Sequence record: OR594184
Length of the DNA stretch: 39,471 nucleotides
Source of the DNA: Escherichia phage vB_EcoM_SHAK9454
Reading direction: 5' to 3' (one strand)
Of this stretch, positions 2,424 to 28,789 are shown one piece after another. How positions within the stretch are numbered: position 1 is the stretch's first letter; the number at the start of each line of letters is the position of its first letter. The position numbers and the translations under genes are program-made. The notes below the pieces were generated by a model that was not told the DNA's origin, made no database searches, and saw only the letters and a program-made list of their open reading frames with translations.

Positions 2424-2616
2424 ATCTCACACTTCAAGAACCTCAAGTCTCCCCATAGGCCCTCTTTCAGTCCAGACCAAAGGCCCTACCCCTACCCGTG
2501 CCAGTCTATCATAAGGTTGGACAGATGGTCAAGACTTAAGGTCAACGATAGGCTGAGGCTATGGCTTAGGGAAGGACGATAGGTTGGGACTATGGGTCTT
2601 CTTTGAGTCTCTATCT
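2424..2616. repeat. Direct terminal repeat, right-end copy (193 bp)
   Basis: Identical to 2617..2809 by direct comparison; begins ATCTCACAC, similar to the T7 genome end TCTCACAG. Confidence 0.9.
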
Positions 2617-2809
2617 ATCTCACACTTCAAGAACCTCAAGTCTCCCCATAGGCCCTCTTTCAGTCCAGACCAAAGGCCCTACCCCTACCCGTGCCAGTCT
2701 ATCATAAGGTTGGACAGATGGTCAAGACTTAAGGTCAACGATAGGCTGAGGCTATGGCTTAGGGAAGGACGATAGGTTGGGACTATGGGTCTTCTTTGAG
2801 TCTCTATCT
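2617..2809. repeat. Direct terminal repeat, left-end copy (193 bp); genome left end
   Basis: Second tandem copy, offset exactly 193 bp from the first. Confidence 0.9.
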
Positions 2810-23097: not shown

Positions 23098-23982
23098 ATG
23101 TCTCAATCAGTTTATGCCGAGTTCGGCGTTAGCTCTAATGCAATCACTGGTTCCGTTGAGGACCTGAACGAACACCAGAAGTCTATGCTTGAACAGGACG
23201 TAGCTGTTCGTGATGGCGATGACGCTATTACCTTCAAGCAACTGGAAGCTGAAAATGAAGAGGCGACCGAAGAAGACGAGAACGTCGAAGAGACTGAAGG
23301 TGAAGAAGACCACGAGTCAGATGACGAAGAGTCTGAGACAGATGGTGAGCAACCTGAGTTCGTAGAACTGGGTGATGCACCGAAAGAGCTGACCGAAAGT
23401 GTCACCGCTCTGGATGAAAACGAAGCTGCATTTGACGACATGGTGTCTTCTGCTGTAGAAGCTGGCAAGGTCACTGCTGATGAAATTACCGCTATCAAGG
23501 CTGAATACGCCAAGGACGGTAAGCTGTCTGACGCATCCTACGCTAAGTTGCAGGAAGCAGGTTACACCAAGCGCTTCGTAGATTCGTTTGTCCGTGGTCA
23601 GGAAGCTCTGGCTGAACAGTATGCTGCTGGTGTGGTTCGCTACGCTGGTGGAGCTGAACAGTTTAACCGCATCCTGTCACACCTTGAGTCCAACGACCCG
23701 TCAACTCGTGAAGCACTGGAAGCTGCCATCGTTCGTAAGGACATTGCGACTACCAAAGCTCTGCTGAATCTGGCTGGCAAGACTCTTGGTAAAGCTGTGG
23801 GTGTTAAACCTCAGCGTACCATCACCACTCAGGCTAAACCTGTGGTCGCACCTAAGGCTCCTCAGACCGAAGCATTCAGCTCCAAGGCTGACATGATTAA
23901 GGCTATGAGTGACCCGCGATACCTGCGTGACGCTAAGTACACGATGGAAGTCCGCGCTAAGGTAGCTGCCTCAAGCCTGTAG
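23098..23982 (+). CDS. Capsid assembly scaffold protein (T7 gene 9-like)
   Basis: 294 aa, highly acidic with E/D-rich N-terminal half; between portal and capsid genes. Confidence 0.9.
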   Translation: MSQSVYAEFGVSSNAITGSVEDLNEHQKSMLEQDVAVRDGDDAITFKQLEAENEEATEEDENVEETEGEEDHESDDEESETDGEQPEFVELGDAPKELTESVTALDENEAAFDDMVSSAVEAGKVTADEITAIKAEYAKDGKLSDASYAKLQEAGYTKRFVDSFVRGQEALAEQYAAGVVRYAGGAEQFNRILSHLESNDPSTREALEAAIVRKDIATTKALLNLAGKTLGKAVGVKPQRTITTQAKPVVAPKAPQTEAFSSKADMIKAMSDPRYLRDAKYTMEVRAKVAASSL

Positions 23983-23983
23983 G

Positions 23984-24006
23984 ACTAAACTATCACTATA
24001 GGGAGA
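23984..24006 (+). promoter_or_regulatory. Phage RNAP promoter (phi10-like), strongest consensus match
   Basis: ACTAAACTATCACTATAGGGAGACC; initiating GGGAGA as in T7 class III promoters. Confidence 0.9.
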
Positions 24007-24108: not shown

Positions 24109-25158
24109 ATGGCAAACGTTCCGGGTCAGAAAATTGGTACAGACCAAGGTAAAGGCAAATCCAGTTCCGACGCTCTGGCGTTGTTCCTTAAGGTATTTGC
24201 TGGTGAAGTCCTGACCGCATTCACTCGCCGCTCTGTAACTGCTGACAAGCATATTGTCCGTACCATTCAGAACGGTAAGTCTGCTCAGTTCCCGGTCATG
24301 GGTCGCACCTCTGGTGTGTATCTGGCTCCGGGTGAGCGACTGTCCGATAAGCGTAAAGGTATTAAACATACCGAGAAAACTATTACCATTGATGGTCTGC
24401 TGACTGCCGATGTGATGATTTTCGACATTGAAGACGCGATGAACCACTATGACGTGGCTGGTGAGTATTCCAACCAGTTGGGTGAAGCTCTGGCTATCGC
24501 TGCTGATGGTGCGGTTCTGGCTGAAATGGCTATCCTGTGTAACCTCCCAGCTGCATCCAACGAGAACATCGCTGGTCTGGGTACTGCGTCCGTACTGGAA
24601 GTTGGTAAGAAAGCTGACCTCAACACCCCGGCTAAACTGGGCGAAGCAATCATCGGTCAGCTGACCATTGCTCGTGCGAAGCTGACCTCCAACTACGTTC
24701 CTGCTGGCGACCGTTACTTCTACACCACGCCTGACAACTACTCTGCAATCCTCGCGGCTCTGATGCCTAACGCTGCTAACTATGCTGCGCTGATTGACCC
24801 AGAGACTGGTAACATCCGTAACGTGATGGGCTTCGTTGTTGTTGAAGTTCCGCATCTGGTACAGGGTGGTGCTGGTGAGACCCGTGGTGCTGATGGTATC
24901 ACTATCGCTTCCGGCCAGAAACACGCATTCCCAGCAACTGCTACTGGAGACGTTAAAGTCGCTAGGGACAACGTTGTAGGTCTGTTCTCTCACCGTTCTG
25001 CTGTGGGTACTGTGAAGCTGCGTGACTTGGCGCTGGAACGTGACCGTGACGTCGATGCTCAGGCCGACCTGATTGTAGGTAAATACGCTATGGGTCACGG
25101 TGGTCTGCGTCCAGAAGCAGCAGGCGCACTGGTTTTCACAGCGGCGTCAGCGGGTTAA
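24109..25158 (+). CDS. Major capsid protein 10A
   Basis: 349 aa; strong RBS; T7 gp10A-like size and position; C-terminus AAGALVFTAASAG. Confidence 0.97.
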   Translation: MANVPGQKIGTDQGKGKSSSDALALFLKVFAGEVLTAFTRRSVTADKHIVRTIQNGKSAQFPVMGRTSGVYLAPGERLSDKRKGIKHTEKTITIDGLLTADVMIFDIEDAMNHYDVAGEYSNQLGEALAIAADGAVLAEMAILCNLPAASNENIAGLGTASVLEVGKKADLNTPAKLGEAIIGQLTIARAKLTSNYVPAGDRYFYTTPDNYSAILAALMPNAANYAALIDPETGNIRNVMGFVVVEVPHLVQGGAGETRGADGITIASGQKHAFPATATGDVKVARDNVVGLFSHRSAVGTVKLRDLALERDRDVDAQADLIVGKYAMGHGGLRPEAAGALVFTAASAG

Positions 25159-25421
25159 CGACCTTTAAGGCCCTCTCTACAGAGGGTCCTACCTTAGAGA
25201 CGTATAGTTCTACGGCGGGAACCAGCCTGAAGGTTGACTTCCCTGAGCTTTCAGATGTGACCGATTGGTCGCTGCTTGAGGTGACTACGCCTGATGGTGT
25301 TAGCTACTCCCGTAGAACCAACAGTCTCTACTTCAAGGCCACCTCTGGCGTGGAAGGTCTGGTGATTGTTGGGTATGACGGCACGCCTGTGCGTTCCTTC
25401 AACGTATCTTTCACAAACTAA
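24109..25421 (+). CDS. Minor capsid protein 10B, made by -1 ribosomal frameshift at G_GTT_TTC (25131-25137)
   Basis: Slippery heptamer in correct register 7 codons before the 10A stop; -1 frame stays open for 94 codons to TAA 25419-25421. Confidence 0.6.
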
Positions 25422-25427
25422 TTGAAA

Positions 25428-25465
25428 CCCCTTGGGTGCCTTCGGGTGCTTGAGGGGTTTTTTTT
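25428..25465 (+). terminator. T-phi-like intrinsic terminator
   Basis: CCCCTTGGGTGCC-TTCG-GGTGCTTGAGGGG followed by 8 T; close to recalled T7 T-phi AACCCCTTGGGGCCTCTAAACGGGTCTTGAGGGGTTTTTTG. Confidence 0.85.
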
Positions 25466-25480
25466 GCTTAAGGAGGGACT

Positions 25481-25570
25481 ATGGTCCTTATTTACACAGG
25501 GTTAGCACTATTCGTCTTATTCTGGGCGTACCTGCTGTCCAGCTCACCGTCTAGCGCCTATGACCGTTAA
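25481..25570 (+). CDS. Small hydrophobic peptide (29 aa) between T-phi and gene 11
   Basis: AGGAGGG then ATG 25481 (short spacer); MVLIYTGLALFVLFWAYLLSSSPSSAYDR. Confidence 0.3.
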   Translation: MVLIYTGLALFVLFWAYLLSSSPSSAYDR

Positions 25571-25581
25571 GGAGTAAACCT

Positions 25582-26148
25582 ATGGCTCAATACATTCCAC
25601 TGAATGCTAACGATGACTTAGATGCCATCAACGATATGTTAGCAGCTATCGGTGAACCAGCAGTCCTACAGCTTGACGAAGGTAACGCTGACGTCTCGAA
25701 CGCTCAACGTATCCTGCATCGTGTCAATCGTCAGGTCCAAGCTAAAGGCTGGAACTTTAACATCAACGAAGCTGCTGTCCTGACACCTGATGTCCAAGAC
25801 AATAGGATTCGATTCCTGCCGTCTTACCTTCGGGTCATGACTGCTGGTGCTACCAGTTACTACAGCAACATGGGGGGCTATCTCTATGACCTGTCCACTC
25901 AGTCCACGACCTTCACTGGACCAATTACAGTCGAACTGGTGGAGATGAAACCGTTCGCTGAGATGCCTGTAGTATTCCGTGACTACATCGTTACCAAGGC
26001 TAGCCGTGAGTTCAACGCTAAGTTCTTCGGTAGCCCAGAGTCTGAACTGTACCTTCGTGAGCAGGAAGCAGAACTCTACCAGCAGGTGATGGAGTACGAG
26101 ATGGACACTGGTCGCTACAACATGATGTCCGACATCGGGAGGGACTAA
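25582..26148 (+). CDS. Tail tubular protein A (T7 gene 11-like)
   Basis: 188-aa ORF with TAAGGAG RBS immediately upstream of the tail tube B gene; T7 gp11-like size and position. Confidence 0.9.
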   Translation: MAQYIPLNANDDLDAINDMLAAIGEPAVLQLDEGNADVSNAQRILHRVNRQVQAKGWNFNINEAAVLTPDVQDNRIRFLPSYLRVMTAGATSYYSNMGGYLYDLSTQSTTFTGPITVELVEMKPFAEMPVVFRDYIVTKASREFNAKFFGSPESELYLREQEAELYQQVMEYEMDTGRYNMMSDIGRD

Positions 26149-26375
26149 TGGCTAGTCACAACCTGAAGATTCACCGCCAGCACTTTGGTCCGGTACAACT
26201 GGGTCTAAAGACAGCAGAGCTGAGACTTAACGACCGGGACTTTAAGGTTGGCGACTGGCTTATCCTGAATGAGTGGGACAACGGGTATACTGGACAACAG
26301 GTAGCACGTAAGGTTGTCCACATTGCTGACGTTGGTGACATCGCTGAGGGATACGTCCTAATGAGTATGATTTAA
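26148..26375 (+). CDS. ASCH-like / DUF3850-family small protein inserted between tail tube genes
   Basis: HNLKI..QHF..V..G.KT.ELR.NDRDF.VGDWLILNEWD.GYTG pattern matches the recalled DUF3850 consensus; ATG overlaps the gene 11 stop. Confidence 0.65.
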   Translation: MASHNLKIHRQHFGPVQLGLKTAELRLNDRDFKVGDWLILNEWDNGYTGQQVARKVVHIADVGDIAEGYVLMSMI

Positions 26376-26384
26376 GGAGGGCCT

Positions 26385-28742
26385 ATGCCACTAATTACTC
26401 AATCAATCAAGAACCTTAAAGGTGGCATTAGCCAGCAGCCAGACATCCTGAGGTTCTCGGACCAAGGCGAGGAACAGGTAAACTGCTGGTCATCAGAGAG
26501 TGATGGCCTACAGAAGCGTCCACCTACAGTCTTCAAGAGACGTCTTAACATCGACGTTGGGAGCAACCCTAAGTTCCACCTGATTAACCGTGACGAGCAT
26601 GAGCAGTATTACATCGTGTTCAACGGGTCAAACATTCAGGTAGTTGACTTGAGTGGTAATCAATACTCAGTTTCCGGTGCGGTAGATTACGTTAAGTCGT
26701 CCAACCCGCGAGATGACATCCGTGTCGTTACTGTTGCAGACTATACGTTCATCGTGAACCGTAAGGGTGTCGTTAAAGGTGGAAGCGAGAAGTCACACTC
26801 TGGTTATAACCGCAAAGCACGAGCTTTAATTAACCTGCGTGGCGGACAGTATGGTCGAACCCTTAAGGTGGGAATCAACGGTGGCGTTAAGGTCTCGCAT
26901 AAGCTACCAGCAGGTAATGATGCCGAGAATGACCCACATAAGGTGGACGCTCAAACCATCGGTGCAGCTCTGAGAGACCTTCTTGTTGCTGCTTACCCTA
27001 CCTTCACGTTCGACCTTGGGTCTGGATTCCTGTTAATCACTGCCCCTTCAGGGACTGACATTAACTCAGTGGAGACGGAGGATGGCTATGCTAACCAGCT
27101 AATCAGCCCAGTACTCGACACGGTGCAAACAATCTCTAAGTTGCCTCTTGCAGCTCCAAATGGGTACATCATTAAGATTCAAGGTGAGACCAACAGTAGC
27201 GCCGATGAATATTACGTGATGTATGACTCCAACACTAAGACGTGGAAGGAGACAGTAGAGCCGGGAGTGGTCACTGGGTTCGATAACACCACAATGCCTC
27301 ATGCTCTGGTGAGACAATCTGACGGCTCCTTTGAGTTCAAGACTCTGGACTGGTCTAATCGTGGTGCTGGTAATGATGACACAAACCCTATGCCTAGCTT
27401 CGTGGATGCTACGATTAACGATGTGTTCTTCTACAGGAATAGGCTGGGGTTCTTGTCAGGCGAGAACGTAATCATGAGCCGTTCAGCCAGCTACTTTGCG
27501 TTCTTCCCTAAGAGTGTGGCTACACTGAGTGATGATGATCCTATTGACGTAGCTGTAAGTCATCCTAGAATCTCAATCCTTAAGTATGCCGTTCCGTTTA
27601 GCGAGCAGCTACTACTTTGGTCGGATGAGGTGCAGTTCGTGATGACAAGCTCTGGGGTCCTTACCTCGAAGTCTATCCAGCTTGATGTAGGCTCAGAGTT
27701 TGCTTTAGGAGATAATGCCAGACCGTTCGCTGTAGGACGCTCAGTCTTCTTCTCAGCTCCTCGTGGGTCATTCACCAGCATTAAGCGATACTTCGCTGTA
27801 GCTGATGTGTCTGATGTGAAGGATGCTGATGATACAACCGGTCACGTATTGTCCTACATCCCTAACGGGGTGTTTGACATTCAGGGGACAGGGACTGAGA
27901 ACTACATCTGCGTCAACTCTACAGGTGCATACAACCGAATCTACCTCTACAAGTTCTTGTTTAAGGACGGCGTACAGCTTCAAGCCTCTTGGTCGCACTG
28001 GGAGTTCCCTAAAGCTGATAAGATTCTGGCGTCTGCGTCGATTGGCTCTACCATGTTCATTGTTCGTCAGCACCAAGGCGGCGTGGACCTTGAGCACCTT
28101 AAGTTCATCAAGGAGGCAACTGACTTTCCGTTAGAGCCATATAGACTCCACGTTGACTCCAAGGTGTCTATGGTAATACCAATTGGCTCATACAACGCTG
28201 ACACCTATAAGACTACGGTTGACATTGGTTCTGCTTATGGTGGAAACGCTCCGTCTCCAGGTAGGTACTATCTGATTGACAGTCAGGGTGCCTACGTGGA
28301 CCTTGGTGAATTGACCGACATCTCAACTGTGGCTGTACTCAATGGTGATTGGTCAGGACGTACAGTGTTCATCGGACGGTCTTATCTGATGTCCTACAAG
28401 TTCTCACGGTTCCTGATTAAGATTGAAGACGAGAGTGGCACTCAGTCTGAAGACACTGGTCGTCTACAGCTTCGTCGTGCTTGGGTAAACTACAAGGACA
28501 CTGGCGCTCTTAGACTCATTGTCAGAAACGGTGAGCGGGAGTTCGTGAACACCTTTAATGGGTACACCCTTGGTCAGCAAACCATAGGGACTACCAACAT
28601 TGGGGATGGTCAGTATCGATTCGCTATGAATGGCAACGCATTAACCACGAGTCTAACCTTAGAGTCCGACTATCCTACCCCGGTGTCCATCGTTGGGTGT
28701 GGCTGGGAGGCGTCATACGCTAAGAAAGCTCGTTCCGTCTAA
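26385..28742 (+). CDS. Tail tubular protein B (T7 gene 12-like)
   Basis: 785-aa ORF (T7 gp12 is of similar size) following gene 11. Confidence 0.93.
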   Translation: MPLITQSIKNLKGGISQQPDILRFSDQGEEQVNCWSSESDGLQKRPPTVFKRRLNIDVGSNPKFHLINRDEHEQYYIVFNGSNIQVVDLSGNQYSVSGAVDYVKSSNPRDDIRVVTVADYTFIVNRKGVVKGGSEKSHSGYNRKARALINLRGGQYGRTLKVGINGGVKVSHKLPAGNDAENDPHKVDAQTIGAALRDLLVAAYPTFTFDLGSGFLLITAPSGTDINSVETEDGYANQLISPVLDTVQTISKLPLAAPNGYIIKIQGETNSSADEYYVMYDSNTKTWKETVEPGVVTGFDNTTMPHALVRQSDGSFEFKTLDWSNRGAGNDDTNPMPSFVDATINDVFFYRNRLGFLSGENVIMSRSASYFAFFPKSVATLSDDDPIDVAVSHPRISILKYAVPFSEQLLLWSDEVQFVMTSSGVLTSKSIQLDVGSEFALGDNARPFAVGRSVFFSAPRGSFTSIKRYFAVADVSDVKDADDTTGHVLSYIPNGVFDIQGTGTENYICVNSTGAYNRIYLYKFLFKDGVQLQASWSHWEFPKADKILASASIGSTMFIVRQHQGGVDLEHLKFIKEATDFPLEPYRLHVDSKVSMVIPIGSYNADTYKTTVDIGSAYGGNAPSPGRYYLIDSQGAYVDLGELTDISTVAVLNGDWSGRTVFIGRSYLMSYKFSRFLIKIEDESGTQSEDTGRLQLRRAWVNYKDTGALRLIVRNGEREFVNTFNGYTLGQQTIGTTNIGDGQYRFAMNGNALTTSLTLESDYPTPVSIVGCGWEASYAKKARSV

Positions 28743-28766
28743 CTTATTGAAGGGCCTATAGATTTA

Positions 28767-28789
28767 CCTTAACTATCACTATAGGGACT
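28767..28789 (+). promoter_or_regulatory. Phage RNAP promoter (phi13-like) embedded in a palindrome
   Basis: CCTTAACTATCACTATAGGGACTA flanked by GGGCCTATAG ... CTATAGGCCC. Confidence 0.85.

Follow-up and report, generated by a model that had tools for sequence, protein, structure and literature searches.

Several proteins with the ASCH fold act on acetylated cytidine, and they are among the closest described relatives of the element considered here. E. coli YqfB is an N4-acetylcytidine (ac4C) amidohydrolase that relies on a Thr24/Lys21/Glu74 triad (PMC9599836). The 'GKER' proteins TthASCH, EOLA1 and TRIP4 ASCH depend instead on the Lys and Glu of their signature motif, which form a catalytic dyad, and in vitro each of the 19 ASCH proteins assayed could remove ac4C from the tRNA of E. 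coli (bioRxiv 10.64898/2026.02.27.708502). Here we analyse a 75-codon gene of the DUF3850 family that encodes a small protein of this fold and lies between the two tail tube genes of Escherichia phage vB_EcoM_SHAK9454 (sequence record OR594184; the whole 39,471-nucleotide stretch analysed is referred to as the window). No functional study of DUF3850 (PF12961) or of this gene, which is found in phages of the genus Kayfunavirus, was found in the literature.

The DUF3850 gene occupies positions 26148..26375 including the stop codon (here and below, features are on the + strand unless stated otherwise), and its predicted product is a stand-alone minimal ASCH-fold protein of 8.5 kDa. It follows gene 11, encoding tail tubular protein A or gatekeeper (25582..26148; Pfam PF17212 Tube, expectation value (E) 6e-46), and precedes gene 12, encoding tail tubular protein B or nozzle (26385..28742; PF25675 Phage_nozzle, 1094 bits, E 0), with the gene for gp13 next in order. 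Positions 26130-26156 read GAC ATC GGG AGG GAC TAATG GCT AGT, base 26148 being common to the TAA of gp11 (26146-26148) and the ATG of the DUF3850 open reading frame (ORF; 26148-26150). The Shine-Dalgarno sequence of the ORF, GGGAGGGA (26137..26144), lies within the last Gly-Arg-Asp codons of gp11 (GGG AGG GAC), 4 nt ahead of the start codon. At the other end, the TAA of the ORF (26373-26375) overlaps the AAGGAGG Shine-Dalgarno sequence of gp12 (26374-26380), which together with the gene 12 start codon forms AAGGAGGGCCTATG (26374..26387); the gp12 ATG is at 26385, 9 nt from the end of the DUF3850 ORF.

A sequence-only reading of the window had proposed a 75-codon ORF of ASCH/DUF3850 type at 26148-26375, translationally coupled between two genes that are neighbours in T7. 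The coordinates and description proved exact, and the coupling is borne out by the start-stop overlap with gp11 (TAATG). The adjacency of genes 11 and 12 recurs in T7-type phages without the ORF, namely K1F, according to its annotation, and SH1, SH3 and SH4, whose gene tables place nothing between the two (PMC4925675). The hidden Markov model comparison with Pfam that had been suggested for the family assignment was run, and both cutoffs were passed: DUF3850 (PF12961) matches the 75-residue protein with E 1.9e-19 and 70.1 bits, above its gathering threshold of 22.9 and over almost the full length of the model (positions 2-76 of 77), and ASCH (PF04266, PUA-like clan) matches with 26.2 bits against a cutoff of 21.2. 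PHROG 986 also matches (E 3e-35).

The length of the ORF is not significant by itself, since 141 ORFs in the window reach at least 60 codons. Its substitution pattern is more telling. The ratio of non-synonymous to synonymous substitution rates (dN/dS) is 0-0.28 against 14 relatives (about 0.1-0.2 overall), and the pooled ratio of non-synonymous to synonymous differences (pN/pS) over 15 distinct sequences is 0.23 in frame versus 1.68 and 1.39 in the two shifted frames, a pattern indicating that the gene is under purifying selection. The same ORF occupies the same junction in relatives whose copies are only 45-69% identical. On the comparative evidence of the Pfam match, the in-frame pN/pS and this same-site conservation, the ORF is confirmed as a genuine gene. 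An antisense ORF of 56 codons (26171..26341) was considered and found unsupported, as the substitutions fit the + frame only, and Rfam gave no RNA family anywhere in the window.

Structural comparison agrees with the family assignment. An AlphaFold model built on a 60-sequence alignment has a predicted local distance difference test score (pLDDT) of 94.7, with strands at residues 3-9, 23-27, 37-43, 47-61 and 69-74 and a helix at 10-17. It matches 3IUW, the crystal structure of the only solved DUF3850 member, with a template modelling (TM) score of 0.92; the nearest folds outside the family itself are ASCH proteins, enzymes such as YqfB coming next. With an isoelectric point (pI) of 6.4, the protein is not a typical basic nucleic-acid binder. 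The octapeptide G19-L-K21-T-A-E24-L-R26 at the junction of helix 1 and strand 2 is the ASCH signature GxKxxExR, and human EOLA1 has the same motif, with the same residue numbering, lining a cavity (PMC6803910). In the gene, codons 19-30 (26202..26237) encode G-L-K-T-A-E-L-R-L-N-D-R, that is, the octapeptide followed by the N-D-R specific to DUF3850. Across 60 homologs of 43-87% identity, K21, E24, R26, D29, L40 and E42 are invariant and H4, K7, G19, N28, R30, G35, D36, Y47, G49, H58 and S73 nearly so; the residues that are invariant in the family as a whole (K21, E24, R26, D29 and E42, the Glu that closes strand 3) are all present in the window protein. So dense a set of conserved polar residues in a chain of 75 looks like a ligand-binding or active site.

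All the sequence and fold tests applied place the protein fully within Pfam DUF3850 and the ASCH superfamily. In a profile alignment with YqfB, K21 and R26 fall on K21 and R26 of that enzyme and E24 falls on its nucleophile T24, with nothing aligned beyond YqfB residue 53. The position of E24 places the window protein in the Glu-containing GKER subgroup and not with YqfB. A YqfB-type (GKTR) amidohydrolase was accordingly rejected: the Thr24-Lys21-Glu74 triad is not present, because there is a Glu at position 24 and the chain stops at residue 75.

The gene is neither rare nor new. The window belongs to Kayfunavirus, the K1F-like genus of the T7 group, and the region shares 99.9% identity with Escherichia phage vB_EcoP-U8; 223 phage records match it, nearly all of them Kayfunavirus. 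Translated searches (tblastn) with the 75-residue protein recovered recognisable homologs in 560 records, with at least 95% identity in about 140 and 100% identity in, for example, ST31, Pkp-1 and EPr2. Coding sequences at the same site are deposited for LM33_P1, EcoDS1, Vec13, vB_EcoP_FFK3 and others, several encoding an identical protein, and they are labelled hypothetical protein, 'DUF3850 domain-containing protein', 'RNA-binding protein' or, in CR44b, gene 11.05. The 'RNA-binding' wording is only an inherited database label, a PHROG term used in RefSeq (e.g., LM33_P1 gp38). When the junction was inspected in a spread sample of 60 of the 214 matching records, a 237-bp insert was found in about 42 and none in about 10; roughly three quarters of the sampled Kayfunavirus records carry the gene. 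The gene is thus already known, deposited and annotated under the same family name, and the sequence-only reading went too far in treating as unusual one that is common in the sampled genus.

What the comparison of junctions adds is a history. In the type phage K1F, which has no DUF3850 gene, the stop codon of gene 11 overlaps the start codon of gene 12. Aligned with K1F, the window has exactly 237 extra bases (26151..26387) after the common GGGAGGGACTAATG, ending in a new AAGGAGGGCCTATG that serves as the replacement Shine-Dalgarno sequence and ATG of gene 12, and many relatives show the same 237-bp difference in length. The ORF therefore uses the ribosome-binding site and start codon that belong to gene 12 in K1F. 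Among 29 loci in which the junction was typed, 17 have the insert; in these gp11 ends GGG AGG (or AGA) GAC TAATG, and the cassette supplies the gene 12 Shine-Dalgarno sequence. Another ten, comprising Dev2/SH/GW1-like phages and a second group, have no insert, a gp11 ending of GGT CGA GAC TAA, and a spacer of 11-13 nt in which gene 12 has a Shine-Dalgarno sequence of its own. The remaining two, K1F and ZG49, lack the insert and have the GGG AGG (or AGA) GAC TAATG ending, here with the gene 12 ATG overlapping the gp11 stop. All three endings encode Gly-Arg-Asp, and it is the choice of synonymous codons that spells a Shine-Dalgarno sequence in 17 of 17 carriers and in none of the ten insert-less loci of spacer type. 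The association is perfect in the raw counts, to which no formal probability is attached, as the loci are related.

Since the gp12 N-termini of K1F and ZG49 are 96-97.5% identical to that of the window, these two phages nest among the carriers, and since they keep the recoded gp11 signature without the gene, they have lost it; the overlapping 11/12 junction of K1F is the scar of that loss. On the simplest reading of these alignments, the cassette entered a spacer-type junction once, long ago, a Shine-Dalgarno sequence within gene 11 was then selected for, and the K1F lineage afterwards lost the insert precisely. An old, single acquisition is further supported by a rough neighbour-joining tree of the DUF3850 domain, in which all junction-site copies cluster together, by a 40.6-kb metagenomic T7-like contig in which the DUF3850 copy is 69% identical, gp12 69% and gp13 65%, by GC content and third-codon-position GC content (GC3) equal to those of the neighbouring genes, and by the absence of any similar cassette DNA from 5,426 E. 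coli genomes. A recent origin in prophages of E. coli was rejected on the last two grounds, which indicate a cassette that is old and has converged in composition on the rest of the genome.

The most diverged copy at this site is gene 11.05 of Citrobacter phage CR44b (locus L110, 4067..4288), which is 45% identical, scores only 26.6 bits against DUF3850, and has S-I-P in place of N28-D29-R30 and Asp in place of E24; this indicates decay or a changed function in that lineage. Independent acquisition of the CR44b copy was discounted, its best matches being Kayfunavirus copies and the junction signature being shared. The junction is also a tolerated insertion point that accepts further mobile genes. 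In Hafnia phage vB_HpaA_yong1 (MK610268) the insert is 655 bp long and consists of the DUF3850 gene and an Endonuclease VII-type ORF (L085, 1340..1780; PF02945, E 2.6e-20) that lies between DUF3850 and gene 12 and overlaps the gene 12 start. Enterobacter phage B1 (ORF41) has the same arrangement, and such ORFs, of 146-158 residues, are probably homing endonucleases. The yong1 ORF is a separate gene that is absent from the window, and a search of the window's own DUF3850 gene for a nuclease domain found none, only DUF3850 and ASCH being matched.

Transcription units in the window are defined by ten to eleven + strand copies of a phage RNA polymerase promoter consensus, CTAAACTATCACTATAGGGA, of 20-23 nt (at 1824, 5458, 8779, 10440, 11525, 14067, 20156, 22995, 23982, 28765 and 36041). 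The nearest to the DUF3850 gene are at 23982-24004, before the capsid gene, and 28765-28787, before gene 13, with no phage promoter between 23982 and 28765, and a strong T-phi-like terminator with a 17-bp stem and a T run follows the capsid gene (25424..25461). Because the next promoter is at 28765, genes 11, DUF3850 and 12 could, by their position, be transcribed only by read-through of this terminator from the promoter at 23982, as genes 11 and 12 of T7 likewise are. From this arrangement the DUF3850 gene would be expressed late. Between the terminator and gene 11 there is also an unannotated ORF of 29 codons (25481..25570; MVLIYTGLALFVLFWAYLLSSSPSSAYDR), preceded by a strong Shine-Dalgarno sequence, AAGGAGG, at 25470, whose product resembles a single transmembrane helix. 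Diverged but plainly related copies (e.g., MIMFYLLTALGLFVSFWAIILLTGPCSPYDR) occur in LM33_P1, ZG49, vB_EcoP_F and one IMG/VR contig, and it is absent from most other Kayfunavirus loci, making it a second presence/absence accessory ORF beside the DUF3850 gene.

The gene is, then, real, conserved, placed for translation and dispensable for virion formation, and its product has the ASCH fold; what we infer concerns its ligand, possible catalysis and its value to the phage. We hold it to be very probable that the product is a real, dispensable ASCH-fold protein that is not part of the virion. The role that we favour, with a probability of roughly 0.45, is that of a late non-structural accessory protein whose ASCH cavity would accept a nucleobase with a modified amine, to be hydrolysed or read by K21 and E24. 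The sequence of events would begin with a single acquisition from the DUF3850 pool of enterobacterial phages, inserted exactly at the gene 11/12 junction. Ribosomes completing gp11 would start DUF3850 at the overlapping TAATG, aided by the Shine-Dalgarno sequence in the last three codons of gp11, and the 3' end of the cassette would provide a fresh Shine-Dalgarno sequence and ATG from which gp12 would still be made. The product would be a near-neutral, five-stranded ASCH-type barrel with a cavity bearing G19, K21, E24, R26, D29, E42, N28, R30, Y47 and H58. Judged by the ASCH proteins that have been characterised, this cavity most likely holds a single nucleobase with a modified exocyclic amine, candidates being an N4-acetylcytosine-like base, in tRNA or as the free nucleoside, and a methylated base in DNA; the Lys/Glu pair may hydrolyse the modified base or simply read it. 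Amidohydrolase chemistry on an ac4C-like substrate, suggested by the same analogy, is possible and is put forward tentatively. Its most specific form, an active late eraser of an exocyclic-amine modification such as ac4C34 of host elongator tRNA-Met or an N-acyl/N-alkyl base installed by a toxin or defence system, seems improbable.

Several observations weigh against a modified-base cavity of this kind. No experiment on any DUF3850 protein was found in the literature, and none of the 19 ASCH proteins shown to remove ac4C is identifiably a DUF3850 protein, phages, DUF3850 and 3IUW going unmentioned in that work (bioRxiv 10.64898/2026.02.27.708502). The Pfam ASCH match is partial, covering positions 2-61 of 103, and the window protein is without the C-terminal elements that bear Glu74 in YqfB and Tyr81 in TthASCH, so that the pocket may be incomplete for catalysis. 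Nor is the conserved pocket indispensable everywhere, given that CR44b keeps the gene with N-D-R replaced and E24 changed to Asp. In E. coli, ac4C is essentially confined to a single site, position 34 of tRNA-Met, and we can name no obvious benefit that a lytic phage would gain from its removal. Finally, the fusions and neighbours of DUF3850 elsewhere point to DNA transactions and not to tRNA.

These fusions and neighbours are one reason to consider that the protein is instead a non-catalytic reader of methylated DNA bases, N6-methyladenine (6mA) or N4-methylcytosine (4mC), which late in infection would bind DNA of the phage or the host and might, for instance, shield or mark sites in replication or packaging. 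The DUF3850 family is large, with 5,324 clusters at 50% identity (E up to 1e-3) and, by profile search, at least 1,784 at 90% identity, and is almost confined to phages and other mobile elements. In 68 viral contigs outside Kayfunavirus, genes within two positions of DUF3850 encode P2 replication protein A, NinB, NinG, RusA, SSB and Gam, as well as N6/N4 and D12 DNA methylases, helicases, primase-type proteins and late sigma-like regulators, and one contig (L030) encodes a Dam-DUF3850 fusion. A published survey describes ParB-CTPase-DUF3850 fusions that are enriched in prophages and linked to parA. The ASCH domain has itself been predicted to read N6-methyladenine, from its repeated fusion and operon linkage with adenine methylases noted by the Aravind group (PMC4738411), and its fold neighbours, the YTH, EVE and SRA-like domains, are base-flipping readers. 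Against this, the 6mA-reader prediction for ASCH is still without experimental confirmation (PMC11037411), DNA-binding proteins do not usually have a pI such as 6.4, the invariant Lys and Glu serve as the catalytic dyad in those ASCH enzymes that have been characterised, and no DNA methylase adjoins the gene in the window phage. On balance we consider a methylated-base reader unlikely.

The long DUF3850 forms, in which the domain is N-terminal to a further 100-300 residues, are uninformative on function, as no Pfam domain was found in the extensions. By eye, these extensions (P0138, P0144, P0151, P0163, P0174 and P0200; proteins of 200-400 residues) are mosaics of low-complexity modules with shuffled motifs such as NACRAAMLQ, APPAPVV and PVIPDGW, and we take them to resemble the ead/Ea22-type modules of lambdoid prophages.

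Somewhat less probable again is a counter-defence protein that would disarm an immunity pathway of the host through the ASCH pocket, for example by sequestering or degrading a nucleotide-derived signal or by reversing the nucleic-acid modification made by a toxin; as a biological role this is compatible with both hydrolysis of a modified base and reading of methylated DNA. It would suit the patchy, moron-like distribution of the gene, with gain and loss within one genus, the acceptance of a homing-endonuclease ORF at the same junction and the presence of homologs in nin-type accessory regions, and the ParB survey offers the speculation that the fusions may serve in anti-defence. The protein has, however, no meaningful match among PADLOC defence-system models or in NCBIfam, the best PADLOC match (PDC-M07B) reaching only E 0.0073 and 14 bits; its high conservation (at least 95% identity in about 140 records, with dN/dS 0.04-0.28) shows no arms-race diversification; and late expression fits poorly with defences that act early.

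The leading suggestion of the sequence-only reading, a virion-associated or tail-assembly factor acting with gp11 and gp12, is very improbable. It would predict the gene in all phages building the same tail, yet K1F, ZG49 and ten further loci, with gp11 68-99% identical to that of the window, do without it, so that a virion can evidently be built in its absence. In siphophages and in P2-like and lambdoid phages the homologs belong to replication, recombination and nin regions, and none of the contexts outside Kayfunavirus is structural. The closest non-podoviral homolog, ORF68 of the lambdoid Erwinia phage Midgardsormr38 (65% identity), sits in the nin region between the replicative helicase and NinB. 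Because structural-operon copies occur only in the Kayfunavirus lineage, the position within the tail operon looks like an accident of where the cassette was tolerated. Published gel-band tandem mass spectrometry of the carrier phage B1 did not report the DUF3850 protein but missed gp11 and gp12 too, and published in-solution virion proteomics covers SH3 and SH4, phages without the gene. Least credible of all is the view that the gene does nothing and persists as the remains of a mobile cassette, for instance as homing-endonuclease cargo that a permissive junction tolerates. In its favour, some relatives carry an Endonuclease VII-type ORF directly downstream, the gene has been cleanly lost at least once and the CR44b motif is degraded. 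Against it, the gene is under strong purifying selection with off-frame controls above 1, the synonymous Shine-Dalgarno recoding is kept in 17 of 17 carriers, the gene was retained while gp12 and gp13 diverged to 65-69%, and most carriers have no endonuclease.

Three further features of this and a related genome were noted in passing. In a metagenomic T7-like locus (L114, 1089..4080; ENA ERZ27280765), the gp12 downstream of DUF3850 is about 1,000 residues long and has a GDSL/SGNH lipase-esterase domain inside its Phage_nozzle domain, an unusual enzymatic decoration of a T7-type tail tube protein. In the window, the -1 frame relative to capsid gene 10 (24109..25158) is open for 113 codons (25083..25421) past a GGTTTTC run near 25130; it looks like a T7-style gp10B frameshift extension, giving a minor capsid protein, and its downstream part is annotated in LM33_P1 as a separate hypothetical protein of 68 residues. 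At 2424..2809 a 193-bp unit occurs twice in exact tandem (2424-2616 and 2617-2809), and the window starts inside a 576-residue ORF running off its left end, which from its position we take to be the terminase large subunit. A circularly permuted assembly that joins the direct terminal repeat head-to-tail most likely accounts for this duplication, which would then not be a tandem repeat of biological origin.

As it stands, a routine 'hypothetical / DUF3850' entry in well over 100 deposited T7-like genomes matters little, and what is new about it is descriptive: the synonymous Shine-Dalgarno recoding, the gene loss in K1F and the intact catalytic-type motif. The junction is nevertheless a clean natural case of a cassette entering a tight late operon without disturbing its neighbours, through a synonymous Shine-Dalgarno sequence, a start-stop overlap and a replacement ribosome-binding site, and pairs of carrier and non-carrier phages (LM33_P1 versus K1F or ZG49) form a ready genetic system. 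GKER-type ac4C deacetylation likewise offers a direct biochemical hypothesis for a large mobile-element family. Were the protein an eraser, it would become the first ASCH enzyme from a phage known to edit nucleic acid of the host or nucleic acid modified by a defence system, and would give a function to some 5,000 mobile-element DUF3850 clusters.

Set beside the known systems, the window protein differs from YqfB (PDB 1TE7, 9KYF, 9KYH), which has Thr24 where it has Glu24 and a Glu74-bearing segment to which it has no equivalent. With the GKER-type proteins (TthASCH 2DP9, EOLA1 5Y7D and the TRIP4 ASCH domain) it shares a beta-barrel in which helix alpha-1 separates strands 1 and 2, and the GxKxxExR motif at the alpha1-beta2 cavity, G19, K21, E24 and R26 being numbered as in EOLA1. 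Those proteins, however, are 120-160 residues long and have additional helices as well as a C-terminal aromatic residue, which is Tyr81 in TthASCH, whereas the window protein stops at 75, and the likeness in sequence is at clan level only (the partial ASCH match of 26 bits). From 3IUW, a structural-genomics entry of 2009 for an 'activating signal cointegrator' of Enterococcus faecalis V583, it shows no structural difference; the distinction is one of setting, a Gram-positive genome on the one hand and a T7-type late operon on the other. Gene 11.05 of CR44b is the same gene at the same site, 45% identical and with N28-D29-R30 lost. The domain recurs, at up to 65% identity, in the DUF3850 genes of other phages, which are likewise small accessory genes of mobile elements, carried in lambdoid nin regions, in Kagunavirus, T1-like and P2-like phages and in ParB-CTPase-DUF3850 and Dam-DUF3850 fusions. 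Those copies belong to early or middle replication, recombination and methylase regions or to fusions, whereas residence in a structural operon is confined to the Kayfunavirus lineage.

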